Shown piece by piece: positions 1 to 53,180 of a stretch of 64,000 bases of DNA. The translations under genes were made by a program, and so were the position numbers. Origin of the DNA: a phage; the NCBI GenBank assembly GCA_023551395.1, contig GCA_023551395.1_3945.1; one strand, written 5' to 3'. The notes under the pieces were generated by a model. It ran no database searches. It was not told where the DNA came from and saw only the letters and a list, made by a program, of their open reading frames with translations. The number at the start of each line of letters is the position of its first letter. Positions within the stretch are counted from its first letter, which is position 1.

Positions 1-2
1 TT

Positions 3-484
<482 letters not shown>

Positions 485-486
485 TA

Positions 487-1674
487 ATGGCAGTAGGTGA
501 AATTCAAATTAGTGCCTTGCCTCAAGCAGCCTTACCAATTGACCTTAGTGATATCTTCCATCTTAAACAAGGTATTGAGGATAAGAGATGCACTCTTGAG
601 CAATTACTTGCTCCACACTCAAGCCTAAGAAATAACCCTCATGGTGTTACTAAAACACAAATTGGTTTAGATAACGTTATCAATGCTCTTCAGTTAGTTG
701 CTGCAAATAACTTATCAGACGTTACTAATGTAGCTCAGGCAAGAGCAAATCTACAGATTATGTCTTCAGAAGAGGTTAATAATCTTGTTCAACAGCATAT
801 TCAGGACAAGAGCAACCCACATAATACAACTAAGGCACAGGTAGGATTGAGTAATGTTCAGAACTGGACAACATCTAACCTTTATAACGAAGATGCAGAT
901 AAGTATGCTACAGCAAGAGCAGTAAATAACTTGTACAAGGCTGTTCAGGCTTCTTATCCAGTAGGTACTATCCATCTTTCCATGAACTCTGCAAACCCTT
1001 CTACGTATTTAATTTGTGGAGGAACTTGGGAGTTAGTTTCAAAAGGTAGAGCATTGGTTGGTTATGACTCTGACACAAGACCAGCAGGTTCTGTATTTGG
1101 TGCTTCAACTGTCACTTTGTCAGTTAATAACATGCCTCAACACTCTCACTCTGTGTCTCTTAGTGGTGGTGGTCATACTCATAATGCAACGGTGTCAATT
1201 TCAGCTTTTGACTATGGGACTAAGACTACCAACTCTTTTGACTATGGAACTAAGACCACTAACACAACTGGTAACCACAACCATGTTGGTAGTGGGTCAA
1301 CAAGTTCTGCTGGTGCTCATAACCACAGATTGACCTATGAATCAGGTGGTGGTTTATCGGAAAGACCTGCAATGGTTTGGTCTTCAAGGAATGACCAATC
1401 ATGGTACTCAGCAGATGCTGTCTGTGAAGTAGCTGGTGCACACACTCACTCTTTCAGTGTTACCACTAACACAACTGGTAACCACAACCATACGGTTGGT
1501 ATTGGTGCTCATAGCCACACAGTTGGTATTGGTTCGCATACACATAATGGTACTGTAACAGTTTCTTCTTCTGAACATACGCATAGCGGGAACACTAATA
1601 GTGTTGGTGGTGGACAAGCTTTCAATATTGAGCAGCCATCCTTCGTACTGTATGTATGGCAGAGAACGGCTTAA
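487..1674 (+). CDS. tail fibre / receptor-binding protein with His-x-His boxes
   Basis: C-terminal half is Gly/Ser/Thr-rich with repeated HxH boxes (HSHS, GGHTHN, GNHNH, GAHNH, GAHTHS, GAHSHT, GSHTHN, EHTHS) as in T4 gp37-type fibre tips; GGAG RBS; tandem duplications FDYGTKTTN x2 and HTVGIG x2. Confidence 0.7.
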   Translation: MAVGEIQISALPQAALPIDLSDIFHLKQGIEDKRCTLEQLLAPHSSLRNNPHGVTKTQIGLDNVINALQLVAANNLSDVTNVAQARANLQIMSSEEVNNLVQQHIQDKSNPHNTTKAQVGLSNVQNWTTSNLYNEDADKYATARAVNNLYKAVQASYPVGTIHLSMNSANPSTYLICGGTWELVSKGRALVGYDSDTRPAGSVFGASTVTLSVNNMPQHSHSVSLSGGGHTHNATVSISAFDYGTKTTNSFDYGTKTTNTTGNHNHVGSGSTSSAGAHNHRLTYESGGGLSERPAMVWSSRNDQSWYSADAVCEVAGAHTHSFSVTTNTTGNHNHTVGIGAHSHTVGIGSHTHNGTVTVSSSEHTHSGNTNSVGGGQAFNIEQPSFVLYVWQRTA

Positions 1675-1684
1675 TTTCTTTACA

Positions 1685-1704
1685 GGGGCTTTATAGCCCC
1701 TTTT
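1685..1704 (+). terminator. Rho-independent terminator
   Basis: GGGGCTTTATAGCCCC hairpin followed by TTTT, just after the stop of 487..1674. Confidence 0.5.
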
Positions 1705-1720
1705 AAGAGGAAAATTTATA

Positions 1721-4099
1721 ATGGCAGATTACAAGTTGAGTGAATTAAACTCAATCGATACAATCCGTTCAGATGACCTTCTTCATGTCAGAGTTAAAAA
1801 GAGACCTGAAATGCTGGGTGATGAAGACCGTCGAATGACCTATCAAGACTTCTTAGCATCTTTTAAACTCGAAAGATTTGTTCAGATTGCTGGTAGCACT
1901 ATGACGGGTGACTTAGGTATTGTCAAACTTCTTTATGGTGGTAAGGCAGTATTTGACCCAACAGGCTCTTCTGAGATTAATATTGGGGACGTTTTAAAGA
2001 CTTTTAAAATTAACTCAAACGGTCTTAAGCTAACTATTGCAGACGCTTCAAGGTCGGCAACTGTTTATCACACTCTGAATAAACCAAGTCCTAATGAACT
2101 TGGAATGAGAACTAATGAAGAGAATGATGCAAGATACTCAAGATTAGCTGCAAATAACATCTTTACCTTCCAACAGGTTATTCAAGCAAATGGCGAAGCT
2201 ATTAGACTAAAAAACTCTTCTGAGAACTCCCCGTTGTATATTAGAGGTCAGGATAGCACTGGTGCTAATAGGTGGTATGTAGGTAATGGTTCAGGGAATG
2301 ATGATGTTATTATCCACAACTACAAGACAGGTTGTGAAGTTAATCTGTCTAGTGTTGCTGCTATTAGCAAGACACTAAGAATCACTGGTCAAGTTCAACC
2401 ATCTGACTTCTCTAACTTAGATGCTAGATATTTTACTCAGACAGTAGCTAATCAGAGATTTGCACAGTTAAATGCTAGTAATGTTCTTTATGGTGCTAAT
2501 ACATTTAAAAAAGATGTTGTATTTAACTCAGATATCCCTGTCATTCTTAAGAGTCTAACAGCTAACAAACCATTATATATTCTAGGTAGAGATGACCAAA
2601 ACTCCAACTTGTGGTTTGTTGGTAAAGGTGGTTCGGGAACAGAGATTAAATTCTATAACTATGTGAGTGATACGGTTTTAGAGTTGTCTGAGACGGCAAG
2701 ATTTAATAAAACTTTGAAGATTACTGGTCAAGTTCAACCATCTGATTGGACTAACATTGACTCTAGATATATTCCAGCAGCAACTTTGAGTAATCTTGCT
2801 AAGATTAATGTGGCTAACACTTTTACAAATGTGCAGACTATTGTATCTAACAATGAAGGTCTAGTATTGAGGAACTTAACACAGGGTCAGCCACAATATA
2901 TCCGTGGTGTTGATACTGCGAATGTATCTAGGTGGTGGGTAGGTGTAGGTGGTACAAATTCTACTGATGTAGCCTTAAACAACAGCTCATCTGGGACTCA
3001 AATTACCCTTATGACTTCAGCGATTAAGGCTAATAAGAATCTAACCATTACTGGTCAAGTTCAACCTTCTGATTGGTCTAACTTAGATGCTAGATATTTT
3101 GTTAAAACTCAGTTATTAAACCAATCCTTAATGACTGTCTCTGTAGATAACCTTGAAAACCCTTCAGGTTTTAATCTTGGATATTCAGGTTTTGTCAGAA
3201 ACAATGCGGTTACTAGTGGACTGAAAGAATTGGCAATCCATGTTGCGCACTCTAATAAGACTGCTGCACATGCAAGAGGAATCTCTTTTGTGTATGGCTC
3301 AAATGGACTGGCAACATTTACCTATGCCTATGACAAAAATGGTGACTATGCCGGAGAAGCACAGATTTATACAACTGATTTTAAACCAACCCCTTCAGAT
3401 ATTGGTGCATACACTAAAGCTGAAACTGACCAGAAGATTGCACAAGCTGTAAGCGACTCCACAGACCTTAACAAAATCTATCCAGTGGGTATTGTAACGT
3501 GGTTTAACAGTAATGTTGACCCTAATACGGCACTTCCTGGTCTAACTTGGACGTACCTGAACAATGGTGTTGGTAGAACTATCAGAATTGCAGCAGCAAA
3601 CGGTTCAGATGTTGCTACAACTGGTGGTTCAGATTCTGTGACGTTAGCTGTTGGTAACTTACCATCACACACCCATAGTTTCTCTGCTACCACTTCATCT
3701 TTTGATTATGGTACGAAGAACACTAATAGCACTGGTGGTCATACTCACTCTGTAAGTGGTACAACAAGTGCTGCTGGTAACCACGCTCACCACTTAGGTC
3801 TGCTATTGGTTAATGGTGGTGATGCTCAGTACGGATATACCACTATTGGTAACAATAAGACAAGAACTCTTGACTGGCTTGACAGAACTGATAACAAATT
3901 CCCTAACACTAACACAACTGGTAACCATACACACACATGGTCTGGTACTACAAGTAACACTGGTGCTCACACCCACTCTGTAGGTATCGGTGCTCACACT
4001 CATACAGTTAGTGGTAACACTGGTGGTACAGGTTCTGGTTCAGCATTTAGTGTTACTAACCAGTTCTACAAGTTAATGGCTTGGGTAAGAACTGCTTAA
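1721..4099 (+). CDS. long tail fibre protein with three shaft repeats and HxH-box tip
   Basis: 792 aa; three ~105 aa internal repeats each ending ITGQVQPSD(F/W)(S/T)N(L/I)D(A/S)RY; C-terminus has HxH boxes; C-terminal end (LMAWVRTA) resembles that of the preceding gene (LYVWQRTA). Confidence 0.75.
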
Positions 4100-4178
4100 T
4101 CCCTTGTTGACTGATTGTTGAGATGGTGTTAATATTCTTTATTGGTATTCTCACCATCTTGGCTGATGAGGTGATTAA

Positions 4179-4376
4179 ATGCCTACAATCCTAGCAATTC
4201 TTCTAAAAAATCTAGGTAGCTTCTTCTGGAAACTCATTTTATCCCTTCTAAGTGAATACATGATTGAGAAAGTGTTCTTTAGGCTTGCAAGATACCTTGC
4301 GAGTAAAACAGACACACCTATTGATGATGAGTTCGTAGATAACTTAGAAAAAGCTTTTAAGGGGGAGAATAAATGA
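4179..4376 (+). CDS. small hydrophobic protein
   Basis: 65 aa, hydrophobic N-terminal half; stop overlaps next start. Confidence 0.4.
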   Translation: MPTILAILLKNLGSFFWKLILSLLSEYMIEKVFFRLARYLASKTDTPIDDEFVDNLEKAFKGENK

Positions 4377-4744
4377 AGTGGCTAGAGGAAGCTTTTAAAA
4401 ATAATATTGGTGCAATTGTTGTTGGTATTTTTAGTGTTATTGGGATGTATACCACTATGCAAGTTTCAAGTGGTAAGCAAGAAGTGTCTGTCACAACAAA
4501 GTTACAGCAGCTAGATAATTATTCCAAAAGTAACTATTCAGCTATTCGTGATTTACAGTCTGACATGAGACTGATTCAGCTAGGGATGGAGAACCAGAAA
4601 GTTCAGTTAGAGAACGTTAAGGGTGAGAATGCAAAACTTACCAAAACTCTTGATAAATTCTCTGACAGTGTGAATAATCTGGCTCAATCAGTATCAGCCT
4701 TGCAAGCTATTACTGAAAAGAACACAAAGAATACTGAAAAATAA
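4373..4744 (+). CDS. membrane-anchored coiled-coil protein
   Basis: N-terminal TM helix (IGAIVVGIFSVIGMY) then heptad-like helical region. Confidence 0.45.
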   Translation: MKWLEEAFKNNIGAIVVGIFSVIGMYTTMQVSSGKQEVSVTTKLQQLDNYSKSNYSAIRDLQSDMRLIQLGMENQKVQLENVKGENAKLTKTLDKFSDSVNNLAQSVSALQAITEKNTKNTEK

Positions 4745-4750
4745 AGTTTA

Positions 4751-4781
4751 AGGCTCCTTTTTACGGGAGCCTTTTTTGTTT
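4751..4781. terminator. Rho-independent terminator at convergent gene junction
   Basis: GGCTCC-TTTTTAC-GGGAGCC hairpin followed by TTTTTTGTTTT, between a plus-strand stop (4744) and a minus-strand stop (4781). Confidence 0.6.
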
Positions 4782-5680
4782 TACTTGCCTACTGACAGAG
4801 GTGCTTCAATCTTCCCTGCATGTTGGTAGTTGTTAATTCCACCAATAAAGTCACTTGCAGTAAGATGTTTTAAGTCACTTAAAGTGTTAAGCTGTACACC
4901 AATCTCAAAAGTAGGTGCATGGAACTCTTCATTGTTCATCAGTTCATAAACCTGCTTCATATGGTTCTGATAAATCTGAGTATCTCCAAAGACACCTATC
5001 AAGTACCGTGGAGTGTATCCAGTCATCTTGCAAAGAACTTCCAGAATAAAACCATAAGACGCAATATTAAATGGAAGTCCTAAAAAGGTGTCTACAGAAC
5101 GTTGATACCATTGTAAGTCAACTTCACCTTCATTAGTGATATAAATCTGAAACAGAACATGACAAGGTGCTAAAGCCATTGAGTTTGCTGCAATATCTGC
5201 TGCATTCCAAGCATTAACAAGCATGTAACGGTCTGTGATATCACCCTTCATCTTCGTTACTAAGGCCTCTAACTGGTCTACAACACAACCATTATGACCT
5301 TCGAAGTTTCTCCACTGAACCCCGTAGATTCTCCCACCTGCATCTTCTAACCAGTCTTGCTCAGAAGAATAGTTAGAGCTTAACCAACGTTTAAAATCAT
5401 CTGACCAGATGGTCCAACGTTCTCCATCATTTTCACCCCAAGTGCGATAACGGAGTTCACCAAGTTTATTCTCACCATTCAGGAACCATAAAGCTTCCCC
5501 AATAACTTGCCGTGTAAACACCTGTTTAGATGTTAAGAGTGGGAAACCAGTACGCATATCAAAACGAAACTGTGGTGGAGCAAATGCAGAGATAACATCT
5601 CCAGTTCGTGTAGTACGCAGTTCACCAACGGATAAAACATGGTTCAGGATATTTTTGTAACTTGAATCTGCTTGTGACAT
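4781..5680 (-). CDS. thyA: thymidylate synthase
   Basis: 299 aa; active-site Cys motif ALAPCH; ThyA-like overall features. Confidence 0.85.
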   Translation of the reverse strand: MSQADSSYKNILNHVLSVGELRTTRTGDVISAFAPPQFRFDMRTGFPLLTSKQVFTRQVIGEALWFLNGENKLGELRYRTWGENDGERWTIWSDDFKRWLSSNYSSEQDWLEDAGGRIYGVQWRNFEGHNGCVVDQLEALVTKMKGDITDRYMLVNAWNAADIAANSMALAPCHVLFQIYITNEGEVDLQWYQRSVDTFLGLPFNIASYGFILEVLCKMTGYTPRYLIGVFGDTQIYQNHMKQVYELMNNEEFHAPTFEIGVQLNTLSDLKHLTASDFIGGINNYQHAGKIEAPLSVGK

Positions 5681-5681
5681 A

Positions 5682-6227
5682 TCAAAAGTGTCCTTTTACT
5701 TGTGGAACATAAATTTCAAAAGTTGCTTTACCATCCTCTGATGGTTTTGACTGTACCTTTGTAAATACACGGTTATCATACAGCTTCTCAAAGAAGTTTT
5801 CAAAAGGTAAATGCACAGTAGCCTCTTCAGTAACTTTATGGAAGACTGTATGGAACACCACACCAGCATACGGTAAAGCATTGACAAGGACACCTGCACC
5901 ACCAATTACAAAGACATCTTCATCAATAGAGCTATCAAGATACTTCAAAAATGCTCCAAAGGATTCTTTGCTGGCCTTAGCATACATTACACCATCTTTG
6001 CCAAAATCTATACCTAAGTATGGTACAGAATTTGTTAAGATTAGGTTTGCACGTTCTGGTAGAGGTTTACTACCCAGAGTCTTAAAAGTCTCATTACCCA
6101 TGACTACTAAGTTATTTTTAGTGAGTCTCTTAAACTCTTGCATGTCCTGTTTATGTCGAGGCCACGGCATACCAGTTGGAGTACCAAATTCACCGTTTTC
6201 ACCACTTGCAAATATCAGCTTAATCAT
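5682..6227 (-). CDS. folA: dihydrofolate reductase
   Basis: 181 aa; N-terminal MIKLIFA...GMPWP...F and LPERANLILT match DHFR signatures; immediately upstream of thymidylate synthase. Confidence 0.8.
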   Translation of the reverse strand: MIKLIFASGENGEFGTPTGMPWPRHKQDMQEFKRLTKNNLVVMGNETFKTLGSKPLPERANLILTNSVPYLGIDFGKDGVMYAKASKESFGAFLKYLDSSIDEDVFVIGGAGVLVNALPYAGVVFHTVFHKVTEEATVHLPFENFFEKLYDNRVFTKVQSKPSEDGKATFEIYVPQVKGHF

Positions 6228-6484: not shown

Positions 6485-7000
6485 TTATTTAACCTCAAAA
6501 ACTGGTTCAAGAACCAATATAAAATCTACACAGTCATCTTCTTCATCCAGAATACCATCAAAGTTCTTAGGAACGAAGTCGAAGAGGCTCATAACAAAGC
6601 AGTCAGAAGTAACCCTGATAGTTCCTCCCATATTCTCTACAGTCAACACTGTACGACTTTCTTTTACCTCTCTCAGAAGATTACTCACAAAGTCATCTAA
6701 GAAGTACTTCATCAGTGACTTAAAGCCTTTAGGGTAATCTGTACCAGAGTATGTTTCAATTTGAGGTACAAGCTTAACATTTATACTGGTCTTTGTTAAG
6801 AATGTGCTAGAGAACATGCTATCAGGTAACTTACAAACAGTCTTTCCAGTACCTTCATGTTCAATCTCAACAAAACCAGCTTCGTCGCCACATGTAACTA
6901 TTTTAAAAGATGCTTCATTCTCATACTGTGAAGCCATAAACTTTTTAAGCATTTCCTTAAGGAAATCTGCATGAGCATCTTGTAAGTAGATATCAATCAT
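6485..7000 (-). CDS. hypothetical protein
   Basis: 171 aa ORF, tight packing with neighbours. Confidence 0.5.
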   Translation of the reverse strand: MIDIYLQDAHADFLKEMLKKFMASQYENEASFKIVTCGDEAGFVEIEHEGTGKTVCKLPDSMFSSTFLTKTSINVKLVPQIETYSGTDYPKGFKSLMKYFLDDFVSNLLREVKESRTVLTVENMGGTIRVTSDCFVMSLFDFVPKNFDGILDEEDDCVDFILVLEPVFEVK

Positions 7001-8371: not shown

Positions 8372-8641
8372 AGGCTACTGCCATCCTTCCATACCTTACC
8401 TTACCACACCTAACCATACCTAACCATACCTAACCAAACTACACCATACAATACCTTGTTAAAAGACCCTTTTAAAGACCTTTTAAAAAGGTAAGTCTCA
8501 TTTTAATGTAGCTGAGACTAACTACCCATACCAGACCCTACCTTACCAAACCAGACCTCACCCTACCCCACCATACCGTATACTACCTCATTAAAAGACC
8601 CTCTTAAAGACCTTTTAAAAAGGAGCCTCCGAAGAGGCTAC
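8372..8641. repeat. composite intergenic repeat block, copy 1
   Basis: Plus strand nearly G-free tandem CCATACC/TTACC units, then AAAGACCTTTTAAAAAGG palindrome and hairpin GTAAGTCTCA...TGAGACT; second sub-unit ends in GGAGCCTCCGAAGAGGCT hairpin. Shares long stretches with 9774-10075. Confidence 0.7.
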
Positions 8642-9773: not shown

Positions 9774-10075
9774 GGCTACTACCATCCACCCATACCATAC
9801 CGAACCTTACCTTACCAAACCAGACCGCGCCTTACCAAACCAGACCAAACATTACTTTACCCTACCTCATTAAAAAACCCTCTTAAAGACCTTTTAAAAA
9901 GGTAAGTCTCATTTTAATGTAGATGAGACTAACTACCCATACTGTACCGCACCTGACCCGACCTGACCAGACCTAGCATTACCGTGCCACACCGTACCGA
10001 ACAGAACACTACCATACCTCACATCACTTAAAAACCCTCTTAGAAGACTCTTAAGTGATGCTGGTGAGTACCCGT
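9774..10075. repeat. composite intergenic repeat block, copy 2
   Basis: Same architecture as 8372-8641: GGCTACTACCATCC start, G-depleted CA/T-rich tracts, CCTCATTAAAA(G/A)ACCCTCTTAAAGACCTTTTAAAAAGGTAAGTCTCATTTTAATGTAG(C/A)TGAGACTAACTACCCATAC shared almost verbatim. Confidence 0.7.
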
Positions 10076-51619: not shown

Positions 51620-53180
51620 TCTATTGAATCATTATACAATCCCTTTCCCTCACCTTTCCAGAATCTTATCAGACCTTAAAAGCAATAACTCTATAGTCTA
51701 CTCTATAACCTTTTATCAAATCAACTTAAATAAAAGCCAATAACCCCAGAAAGGGGATGGCCCATTTAAACGCTCTATAAAGCTCTATAACAGCCTTATC
51801 AACCTAACTTAAGGGATTGCATTAACCAACCTTAAAAAGCTCTTTACAGGGCTTTATAGAGGCTTAAAAGAATCTTATAAGGTTATAAGCTTTATTATCT
51901 CGTTAGCTATCTTGTGAACTACTAAAAAGGGCTTGTTATTGTCTTAAAAGTATGTTATATGGGCTTTAAAGTTACTTTGAAGTAGCTTAAAAGTTACGTA
52001 AATGCTAGCCCCCTTAACATTTTCTTAACAATTTCTTAACAAACCCTACATAGTTATGCTTTTAAGGCACTTGTTAGCAACTTGTTAGTCCCTTGTTAAA
52101 TCTCTGTTAAGACCACGTAAAAGCCTTGTAAGAGTCTTTGACATAGCCTTTAAAGCCCCTGTAAAGCCCTATAAAGAGGTATCTGTACAGTTGGGGGGTA
52201 GATACTAGGAAGAGACTTAAAAGAGCTTACAAGGAGCTATAGAGAGCTTTTAAGAGGTATGTTTAAAGAATCACTAAGAAAGGAAAGGGAACGATAAGAA
52301 AAGAGATAGTGACCATGTTAATAGCTTGTTAAAAAGATTAAACACTTGTTAGAGACTTGTTAATTATCTTAACAAAATAACTCTTAAAAATTAACTTGTT
52401 AGCTCTTGTTAGCCATCTGTTAAGACTCTGTAAAGCCTATGTATCAACTGTTAAGAAACTGTTACGCTCTTGTTAGTTCTGTTGAGAATCTGTTAAGACC
52501 TTTGAAGAGATGTTAAGGAGATGTGAGAACTGTTAAGAGATTGTTAAGGATATTTTAAAATTTTGCAAAGTACTTGTAAGGGAGCTGTTAAGGGCTACCA
52601 AGCAGATATACATCTTCTACAGATATTTTTCAGTTCCTTCAAAGACCCTAAAAAATGACTTGATAGTCCTATTTTATAAAAATTTTAAAAATCTGAATAA
52701 TTACCTATACAGTCTTTCTAAAATACAGGTAATAACAGGCTTATAAGATACCTTGTTAGTACCGTGTTAGACCTTGTGAGATAAGGTCTGTAAAGATATT
52801 CCTGTTAAGTTTGTTAAAACAGTCTATATAGAGGCTTAGTAATACCTAGTGAACACCTATAGAGAGTGTCATAGCTAACCTAGAGATTAAGAGGTGTATA
52901 GGAGCTTCTAAGAGGGTATAGAAAGATGGTTAAGGTGATTGTATAGGTTGTTAAGAAGGCTTGTTAGAGGGCTTGTTAGAAGGGTTATACAGAGGGCTAT
53001 TAAGACCACTAGATAGATACTAAGATACTATATAGTACTATATAACTATATATAGAGAGTAAGCTTAAGAAGGTTGTTAAGAAGGGTAGATATTTTGTTC
53101 ACATATGATGGTGACCCAGAGGTTGGGACAACCGATAAAAATTTTATAAAAATTAAAAAGCCCCCAATTAAGGAGGCTCT
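51620..53180. repeat. 1.5 kb ORF-free region with dense short direct repeats
   Basis: More than 25 copies of (C)TTGTTAG / CTGTTAAGA / TGTTAAG at 9-12 bp spacing (densest 52040-52120, 52320-52560, 52740-52800, 52920-52990), plus repeated CTATAAAG/CTTTATAGA motifs; lies between convergent gene blocks. Confidence 0.7.

Follow-up and report, generated by a model that had tools for sequence, protein, structure and literature searches.

Proposed pairing of needle units and probable exchange of heads in the gp37-type side fibres of a Felix O1-like phage

Here we analyse two adjacent tail fibre genes at one end of a 64,000-nucleotide stretch of phage DNA (GenBank assembly GCA_023551395.1, contig GCA_023551395.1_3945.1), referred to below as the window. 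Because of its nucleotide identity and synteny with sequenced phages, the annotation of Escherichia phage EF202P1 and protein family assignments, the window is attributed to a Felix O1-like myophage (Felixounavirus) and the two genes to its short and long side fibres (short tail fibre, STF; long tail fibre, LTF). An initial annotation had read two small in-frame tandem duplications in the STF gene as signatures of recent slippage or recombination, with length polymorphism to be looked for at the same sites in relatives. Our comparisons point instead to old, fixed building blocks of a T4 gp37-type needle. Each doublet appears to supply one face of the same two needle rungs, and host range would change by the exchange of whole cassettes rather than by gain or loss of single units. 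We consider this overall explanation likely.

Two gp37-type tips and the doublets of the short fibre

Judged by profile and pairwise matches, both fibres end in paralogous tips of the T4 gp37 type, which are rich in His-x-His (HxH) boxes. Residues 146-367 of the STF align with residues 18-228 of the 242 in the T4 gp37 tip structure (PDB 2XGF, domains D10 and D11; phmmer, E=2.3e-26), collinearly across the collar, both needle arms and the C-terminus, and LTF residues 645-771 align with residues 94-218 (E=1.3e-20). The C-terminal parts of the two fibres, which end in LYVWQRTA and LMAWVRTA, are 35% identical to each other (BLASTP, E=3e-22) and thus paralogous. Both tips consist to 42-45% of Gly, Ser and Thr and to 9-10% of His. 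Nine HxH boxes are found in the STF (four and five flanking amino acids (aa) 282-316) and six in the LTF (three and three flanking aa 691-733), relative to seven in T4 gp37, and the heads between them are poor in His. The initial annotation was correct on the paralogy of the fibres, their Gly/Ser/Thr-rich HxH tips of the T4 gp37 type and the related C-termini. The fold-back topology of T4 gp37 also matches the published topology of Felixounavirus orthologues. The parts of the STF are as follows.

487..1674, + strand: STF gene, 395 aa (open reading frame, ORF; PHROG 2097 tail fibre, E=8.6e-137; 97% nucleotide (nt) identity to Felixounavirus genomes)
634..858, + strand: N-terminal shaft with the motif NPHxxTKxQ(I/V)GLxNV twice, 60 aa apart (aa 50-64 and 110-124, nt 634-678 and 814-858; from the translation)
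907..1137, + strand: collar, T4 gp10 C-terminal / gp37 D10-like (aa about 141-217; Pfam PF21939 Gp10_C)
1138..1329, + strand: outgoing (ascending) needle arm (aa 218-281), HxH at aa 219, 230, 264 and 278 (2XGF alignment)
1204..1263, + strand: two FDYGTKTTN units of 10 aa each, the 30-bp doublet (tandem repeat search and unit table; homologous to T4 gp37 891-910)
1330..1434, + strand: putative receptor-binding head cassette (aa 282-316; swap pattern in relatives; corresponds to T4 gp37 tip 932-959)
1435..1584, + strand: returning (descending) needle arm (aa 317-366), HxH at aa 319, 333, 342, 351 and 364
1483..1536, + strand: two HxHTVGIGx units of 9 aa each, the 27-bp doublet (tandem repeat search and unit table; homologous to T4 gp37 980-997)
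1585..1671, + strand: C-terminal return to the collar, ending FVLYVWQRTA (conservation in 45 orthologues)

Most residues in both copies of the shaft motif are invariant or nearly so across the 45 orthologues. The collar matches Gp10_C at E=1.4e-18 (68.6 bits, cut-off 27) and, among PDB entries, 2fkk and 5hx2 (both gp10) and 2xgf from residue 18. At the C-terminus, Y389, W391 and R393 are invariant in the orthologues; the T4 gp37 C-terminus, as read in the T-even homologues P0165 and P0167, is ...NIAFNYIVRLA.

The two doublets are the two top-scoring tandem arrays of the whole window, in which just seven rows of the Tandem Repeats Finder (TRF) output score at least 60. The array of 30-nt units (2.0 copies) spans 1205-1263 with a score of 97 and 89% matches, and that of 27-nt units (2.0 copies) spans 1488-1540 with a score of 78 and 84% matches. 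Both in-frame repeats therefore exist as first described, give or take a few bases in position. Set in codon phase, the first array encodes AFDYGTKTTN (1204-1233) and SFDYGTKTTN (1234-1263). These units share 26 of 30 nt, and their four differences comprise three synonymous changes and the Ala/Ser exchange in the first codon. The second array encodes HNHTVGIGA (1483-1509) and HSHTVGIGS (1510-1536), with 21 of 27 nt shared and six differences. We reject an origin by chance or low complexity on the strength of the top tandem scores in 64 kb and of conservation in homologues.

This conservation is deep. T4 gp37 carries both doublets at homologous positions in the HMMER alignment to 2XGF, with two FDYGTK-type and two HxHxVGIG units as in the STF, and many E. 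coli prophage fibres carry them too. Two units of each kind (2/2) are present in 22 of 29 IMG/VR loci by eye, or in 21 by strict motif count, the second unit of L022 being degenerate. Every protein cluster with the tip type of the window, down to 72% identity, has two of each, and a length of 395 aa is shared by all 13 clusters with 93-99% identity. Forty members of the closest clusters are likewise all 2/2, with lengths of 395 or 390 aa except for three shorter proteins (two late starts and one head deletion). No copy-number polymorphism was found among relatives with this tip type, in either the 29 loci or the 40 cluster members. Across the genus, unit numbers do vary (2/2, 3/3 and 4/4), always together with replacement of the tip. 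Among close relatives copy numbers are identical, an outcome that the initial annotation had named as refuting its reading. Finally, most nucleotide differences between the units recur in the closest relatives (L001-L004), so these differences predate the clade. They are, to judge from these comparisons, old and fixed components of the needle and not products of recent slippage.

Matched unit numbers on the two needle arms

We counted units automatically in 192 distinct complete tips, with the caveat that the result depends on motif definitions. Unit numbers are equal on both arms in 164 tips and differ by one in 25 more (Spearman rho 0.88). Most of the off-diagonal tips that were inspected by eye became equal once degenerate units were counted; the exceptions are P0051, described below, and a few distant proteins with different needles. 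Unit counting was used in place of an arm-length measure that located the head at the widest interval without an HxH box, which was rejected because His-free FDYGTK runs make up that interval in 3/3 and 4/4 tips.

The equality holds over a wide range of needle lengths. LTFs are 1/1, and the window STF, T4 and many E. coli prophage fibres are 2/2. Felixounavirus STFs occur as 2/2, 3/3 (seven HxH boxes) and 4/4 (nine HxH boxes), and T-even gp37 variants as 2/2, 3/3 and 5/5. P0183 and P0212 reach 5/5 and P0283 reaches 6/6, if degenerate decapeptides that keep the 10-residue spacing are included. A metagenomic STF-like protein, P0049 (453 aa), has one FDYGTK and one HxHxxxIG unit on each arm, in mirror order; because the arms are antiparallel, FDYGTK still faces HxHxVxIG at both levels, and this is a natural compensatory arrangement.

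Published contacts in T4 gp37 (G921-F970 and H929-G964) give a register in which paired residue numbers sum to about 1892 and which places the units at 891-910 opposite 982-1000, in a numbering rebuilt from the residues named in the contact paper. The same register on the window STF puts aa 240-259 opposite about 335-354. Taken together, the counts, the published topology and the two contacts suggest that one doublet faces the other across the same two rungs of the needle.

We propose the following structure and mode of change. Each fibre would be a homotrimer with its N-terminus on the baseplate and a receptor-binding tip at its C-terminus, and each chain would run from the collar out along a thin needle to a small head and back to the collar. 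By homology with T4 gp37, the core of the needle would be lined with the HxH boxes of the three chains, which would hold metal ions in a row; at one ion per box, the short fibre would have nine and the long fibre six. If the analogy with T4 extends to the ion, each site would hold octahedral Fe(II) between six His. The head between the arms is expected to contact the receptor, probably a lipopolysaccharide (LPS) core structure, since related phages need the LPS core and do not need protein receptors. Decapeptides of the outgoing arm and nonapeptides of the returning arm, at equal height, would form two rungs in which a metal-binding His pair of the returning arm meets a His-free spacer of the outgoing arm. 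A change in one array alone would be selected against because the arms must match in length, and this constraint would leave two plus two units fixed in close relatives and common to T4 gp37. One-sided slippage would mismatch the arms, which would explain why neither array varies alone. Host range would change instead by cassette exchange, that is, of heads between His-box sequences, of whole needles, and of LTF shaft modules at their junction.

More generally, the gp37-type needle may be a modular ruler of FDYGTKxTx/HxHxVxIGx pairs, one to six in number, whose two sides must change together, mainly by exchange of the whole tip. We hold this broader rule tentatively, at a little less than an even chance. 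Original gp37 tip structure paper and T4 fibre review aside, we found no earlier statement of such a paired-unit rule in the literature; it is a modest and possibly unreported addition.

How could the doublets have arisen otherwise? Recent replication slippage or unequal recombination, with ongoing length variation in a host-range determinant, would account for the in-frame tandem arrangement of the units and their similarity (26/30 and 21/27 nt), for copy numbers of 2, 3 or 4 across the genus, and for the greater likeness of units in the window clade than in other clades. This origin is nonetheless very improbable, given that T4 gp37 has the same doublets, that neither the relatives with the same tip nor the 40 close cluster members are polymorphic, that most unit differences are common to L001-L004 and hence older than the clade, and that one array was never seen changing alone. 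Another alternative is that the doublets are ancient but that, in this lineage, gene conversion between adjacent units has made them partly uniform. Such concerted evolution would explain why the FDYGTKTTN peptides are nearly identical and why a perfect 30-nt repeat flanks the head. In its favour, FDYGTK units are 25-27/30 identical within window-clade genomes, unit 1 of the window shares just 17-21/30 with unit 1 of distant 2/2 fibres and ends in ..TN rather than the ..TS of most other clades and T4, the repeat at 1255/1462 is identical at 30/30 positions while neighbouring repeated motifs differ synonymously, and the HxH units of L019 are identical at 26 of 27. However, strong constraint on the peptide gives units of 27-30 nt a high baseline identity, about 20/30, the averages are unclear (23.6/30 for the same position between genomes versus 22.5/30 within a genome), and no conversion tract can be delimited. 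We regard such homogenisation as possible but rather unlikely.

The equal unit numbers could, alternatively, reflect shared ancestry of whole tip cassettes and not a structural need for matched arms. Tips move as cassettes, so both arrays are co-inherited, and many 2/2 tips are closely related. Yet six states, from 1 to 6, lie on the diagonal, several of them within single families (Felixounavirus STF and T-even gp37); the swapped arrangement of P0049 keeps its pairing; the recombinant P0051 keeps its arm length within a residue or two; and the published hairpin topology demands matched arms. Ancestry alone thus seems an improbable source of the pattern.

Several observations weigh against ancient, structurally paired rungs. 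Before inspection by eye, 28 of the 192 tips were off-diagonal, and the counts are phylogenetically non-independent, so that independent coordinated changes number perhaps 5-10 and not 192. Strict equality is also not absolute, for P0051 has four outgoing and three returning units plus an 8-aa spacer; this protein (331 aa, from Shigella phage vB_SflM_004) has an apparently chimeric tip with a hybrid head, and its annotated ORF starts late. FDYGTK units of the window clade, which match at 26/30 nt and in every residue from the second on, are closer than those of other clades (18-24/30), and they may have been homogenised or re-duplicated in the clade ancestor. Metal binding and the receptor are carried over from T4 and relatives, and the rung pairing draws on counts, topology and two contacts. 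Structure prediction adds little: an AlphaFold2 (AF2) monomer model of the STF, built on a 45-sequence alignment, reaches a pLDDT of 61.8 and a pTM of 0.25, and a monomer cannot represent an obligate interwoven trimer. The model thus speaks neither for nor against a fibre fold, and the argument draws on the sequence match to 2XGF. The model has strands on both arms and a head that is disordered at 276-315 and of lowest confidence. A Foldseek search of this low-confidence monomer against the PDB returned nothing at E<0.001; the matches above that value were limited to C-terminal domains of gp10 and pore toxins with long beta-hairpins.

Exchange of heads and shaft modules

The view of this region as a host-range determinant shaped by recombination, also part of the initial annotation, is supported, and the exchanges involve heads and shaft modules. 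The long fibre and the repeats that bear on these exchanges comprise the following features.

1721..4099, + strand: LTF gene, 792 aa (ORF; PHROG 4277, 1223 bits over the full length)
2126..3094, + strand: three LTF shaft modules, gp37_trimer / T7 gp17 pyramid-like (aa 136-236, 238-349 and 350-458; Pfam PF20744 and a self-built hidden Markov model, HMM)
2369..2434, also 2708-2773 and 3035-3100, + strand: conserved LTF module junction (direct-repeat family D3, 66-nt repeats, 76-86% identity)
3461..3661, + strand: LTF collar (aa about 581-647; BLASTP alignment to the STF collar)
3662..3790, + strand: outgoing needle arm of the LTF; single FDYGTKNTN unit at 3698-3727; HxH at aa 650, 674 and 688 (HAHH)
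3791..3919, + strand: LTF head cassette (aa 691-733; swap pattern in relatives)
3920..4096, + strand: returning needle arm of the LTF, ending KLMAWVRTA; single HTHSVGIGA unit at 3968-3994; HxH at aa 736, 750 and 759
1255..1284 and 1462..1491, + strand: perfect 30-nt direct repeat ACCACTAACACAACTGGTAACCACAACCAT, encoding TTNTTGNHNH; no exact direct repeat of the fibre region is longer

We compared the window segment by segment with 29 related loci (L001-L029). For the STF head (aa 282-316), identity is 94-100% in some loci and 0-14% in the rest, while the needle that flanks it is 47-100% identical. For the LTF head (aa 691-733), three loci reach 91-95% identity and the others with a complete LTF 5-12%. 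The heads of the two window fibres are unrelated to each other. In L013, L014 and L019, however, STF and LTF share one head cassette (VGG(R/H)YGGDSIGGKQRVQ...), and in L019 the shared head includes 113 identical nucleotides between the STF (about 4335-4447) and the LTF (about 6794-6906). Heads also cross between phages: the LTF of L028 has the head found on the STF of phage SPJ41, and the LTF head of L005 is ~89% identical to the T4 gp37 head, which suggests exchange with T-even phages. A T4-like head of this kind would also fit the specificity of phage VpaE1 for E. coli B LPS. The head thus appears to be a portable specificity module. Its portability between STF and LTF is a modest addition that may already be in the literature.

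In the LTF shaft, three stretches match Pfam PF20744 (236.1 bits, cut-off 21.7; E=2.6e-71), with a weak match to T7 gp17 (PDB 4a0t, E=0.002). The modules are mutually 38-44% identical by the self-built HMM and their DNA repeats follow one another at intervals of 339 and 327 nt, in line with the three shaft repeats of the initial annotation, which had set their start about 50 nt away. Relative to the T7 gp17 pyramid, the PF20744 domain is tripled in tandem here, and the modules are swapped independently among phages. The three modules and the domain that follows them (2126-3460 region) vary independently among otherwise near-identical phages. L002 is an example, with modules 1 and 3 at 96-100% identity to the window and module 2 at 44% amino acid identity, essentially its sole difference. 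Islands of 75-88% DNA identity lie between swapped modules at the conserved junction (2369, 2708 and 3035), which encodes ..TGQVQPSD(W/F)xNxDxRY.., and the 66-nt junction repeats are likely the crossover points for module swaps. The LTF collar scores 18.1 bits against Gp10_C, under the cut-off, and is recognised through the BLASTP alignment of the whole tip to that of the STF (E=3e-22). It is conserved at 94-100% in Escherichia-type relatives and at 64-70% in the most divergent loci.

A substrate for recombination may lie within the needle itself. The two copies of the perfect 30-nt repeat are 207 nt (69 codons) apart and bracket the inner needle and head of the STF, and 21 nt of the repeat recur in the LTF at 3907-3927. 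On sequence grounds, this repeat is a better candidate recombination substrate than the doublets. A deletion between the copies, the reciprocal product of a His-box duplication, was seen once, in P0140, a window-type STF without exactly the 69 aa in question. Its source is one 2.8-kb metagenome contig assembled with MEGAHIT (L030), and the gap may be a true deletion at the His boxes or the result of a collapsed assembly. We do not take P0140 as proof of His-box recombination, because a 30-nt repeat could mislead a small-k assembly and the evidence is a single MEGAHIT contig.

Work on T-even gene 37 by Tetart et al. (1996 and 1998, J Mol Biol) reportedly dealt with recombination and duplication at His boxes, and the T4 host-range mutants of that work are said to duplicate segments that include the adhesin region. 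In T-even gene 37, conserved His-box DNA surrounds a variable adhesin segment and is a likely site of crossover; the window heads are likewise replaced between His boxes, and the mosaic pattern matches, by this analogy, adhesin swapping at conserved motifs. The duplications reported there differ from the doublets in that they include the adhesin, whereas the doublets are structural units of 9-10 aa outside the head and are fixed rather than mutant alleles. No duplicated head of that type was found in the window, which has one head per fibre.

Genome context and significance

Both genes are already known and their fibre architecture is published. ORFs 487-1674 (395 aa) and 1721-4099 (792 aa) are adjacent on the + strand. 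A megablast search with window positions 1-6000 matched 265 GenBank phage records, 38 of which cover at least 80% of the query; the best match is 97.1% identical with the same gene order, and nearly all records are Felixounavirus of Escherichia, Salmonella or Shigella. Escherichia phage EF202P1 has coding sequences at identical coordinates, both annotated as fibre proteins, and LF82P5 and KhF2 are 97% identical to the window at the nucleotide level. The STF orthologues are Bas63 gp26, Sf14 gp52 and VpaE1 gp74; those of the LTF are Bas63 gp27, Sf14 gp53 and VpaE1 gp75. The VpaE1 paper (2015) noted that both fibres (gp74 and gp75) resemble the T4 adhesin, and the Sf14 structure paper describes two fibres, gp52 (391 aa) and gp53 (792 aa). 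In the Bas63 cryo-electron microscopy study (2025), gp26 is the STF, of 430 Å, and gp27 the LTF, of 630 Å, each with a collar, an HxH needle and a head as in T4 gp37.

Relative to these phages, the window has the same gene order, with the fibre genes ahead of small ORFs and thyA/frd, and fibres of 395 and 792 aa versus 391 and 792 aa in Sf14. Head cassettes vary from phage to phage within Felixounavirus. Seven HxH boxes are reported for the Bas63 STF versus nine, with two plus two units, in the window STF; among the loci compared here, seven-box STFs were seen only with three plus three units (L020-L024). The Bas63 LTF has an extra HHxH-type box beside the head, where the window LTF has HAHH. 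Differences from T4 are larger. T4 gp37 has 1026 aa in a four-protein fibre, whereas the window tips sit on one-gene fibres of 395 or 792 aa, and its head sequences are unrelated to the window heads. T4 gp37 also has chaperones of the gp38/gp57A type; searches of Pfam and PHROGs found no chaperone-like families in the three small ORFs that flank the window fibres (182-484, 4179-4376 and 4373-4744), and the Sf14 paper does not report chaperone homologues in Sf14.

One of these ORFs (182-484, 100 aa) lies upstream of the fibre genes. The two downstream, which are followed by thyA and frd on the opposite strand, overlap each other directly after the LTF gene (4179-4376, 65 aa, and 4373-4744, 123 aa) and belong to PHROG 402 and 4038, where function is unassigned. 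One relative has the first annotated as a holin, and the second has weak coiled-coil and spanin-like matches. Between the two fibre genes, the 46-nt spacer, whose length is kept in most relatives, contains a GC-rich hairpin AGGGGCTTTATAGCCCCT followed by TTTT at 1684-1701 on the + strand. A 61-nt stretch around it folds with a minimum free energy of -16.5 kcal/mol (z=-2.0), and the hairpin alone (centroid) with -12.9. With so short a T run, this hairpin was not called by a terminator scan. It may act as a weak terminator or in RNA stability, though its fold is only mildly better than that of shuffled sequences. Further tandem repeats elsewhere in the window lie at 8393-8449 (10 nt x5.7, ACCATACCTA), 9790-9855 (25/20 nt x2.3) and 52948-53005 (25 nt x2.3).

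Overall, contingency-like hot spots are the wrong reading of small tandem repeats in tips of the gp37 type. If the paired-unit rule is true, a single slippage would yield a mismatched and probably defective fibre, and needle length would be an evolvable trait that perhaps sets the reach of the head through surface glycans. A redesign of the needle would then probably have to add or remove one unit per arm. For fibre engineering and for host-range prediction from sequence, where the practical value lies, the natural crossovers at the His boxes by the head and at the shaft-module junction offer ready seams for swapping heads or modules: one head can serve an STF or an LTF, and Felixounavirus fibres can carry a head like that of T4.

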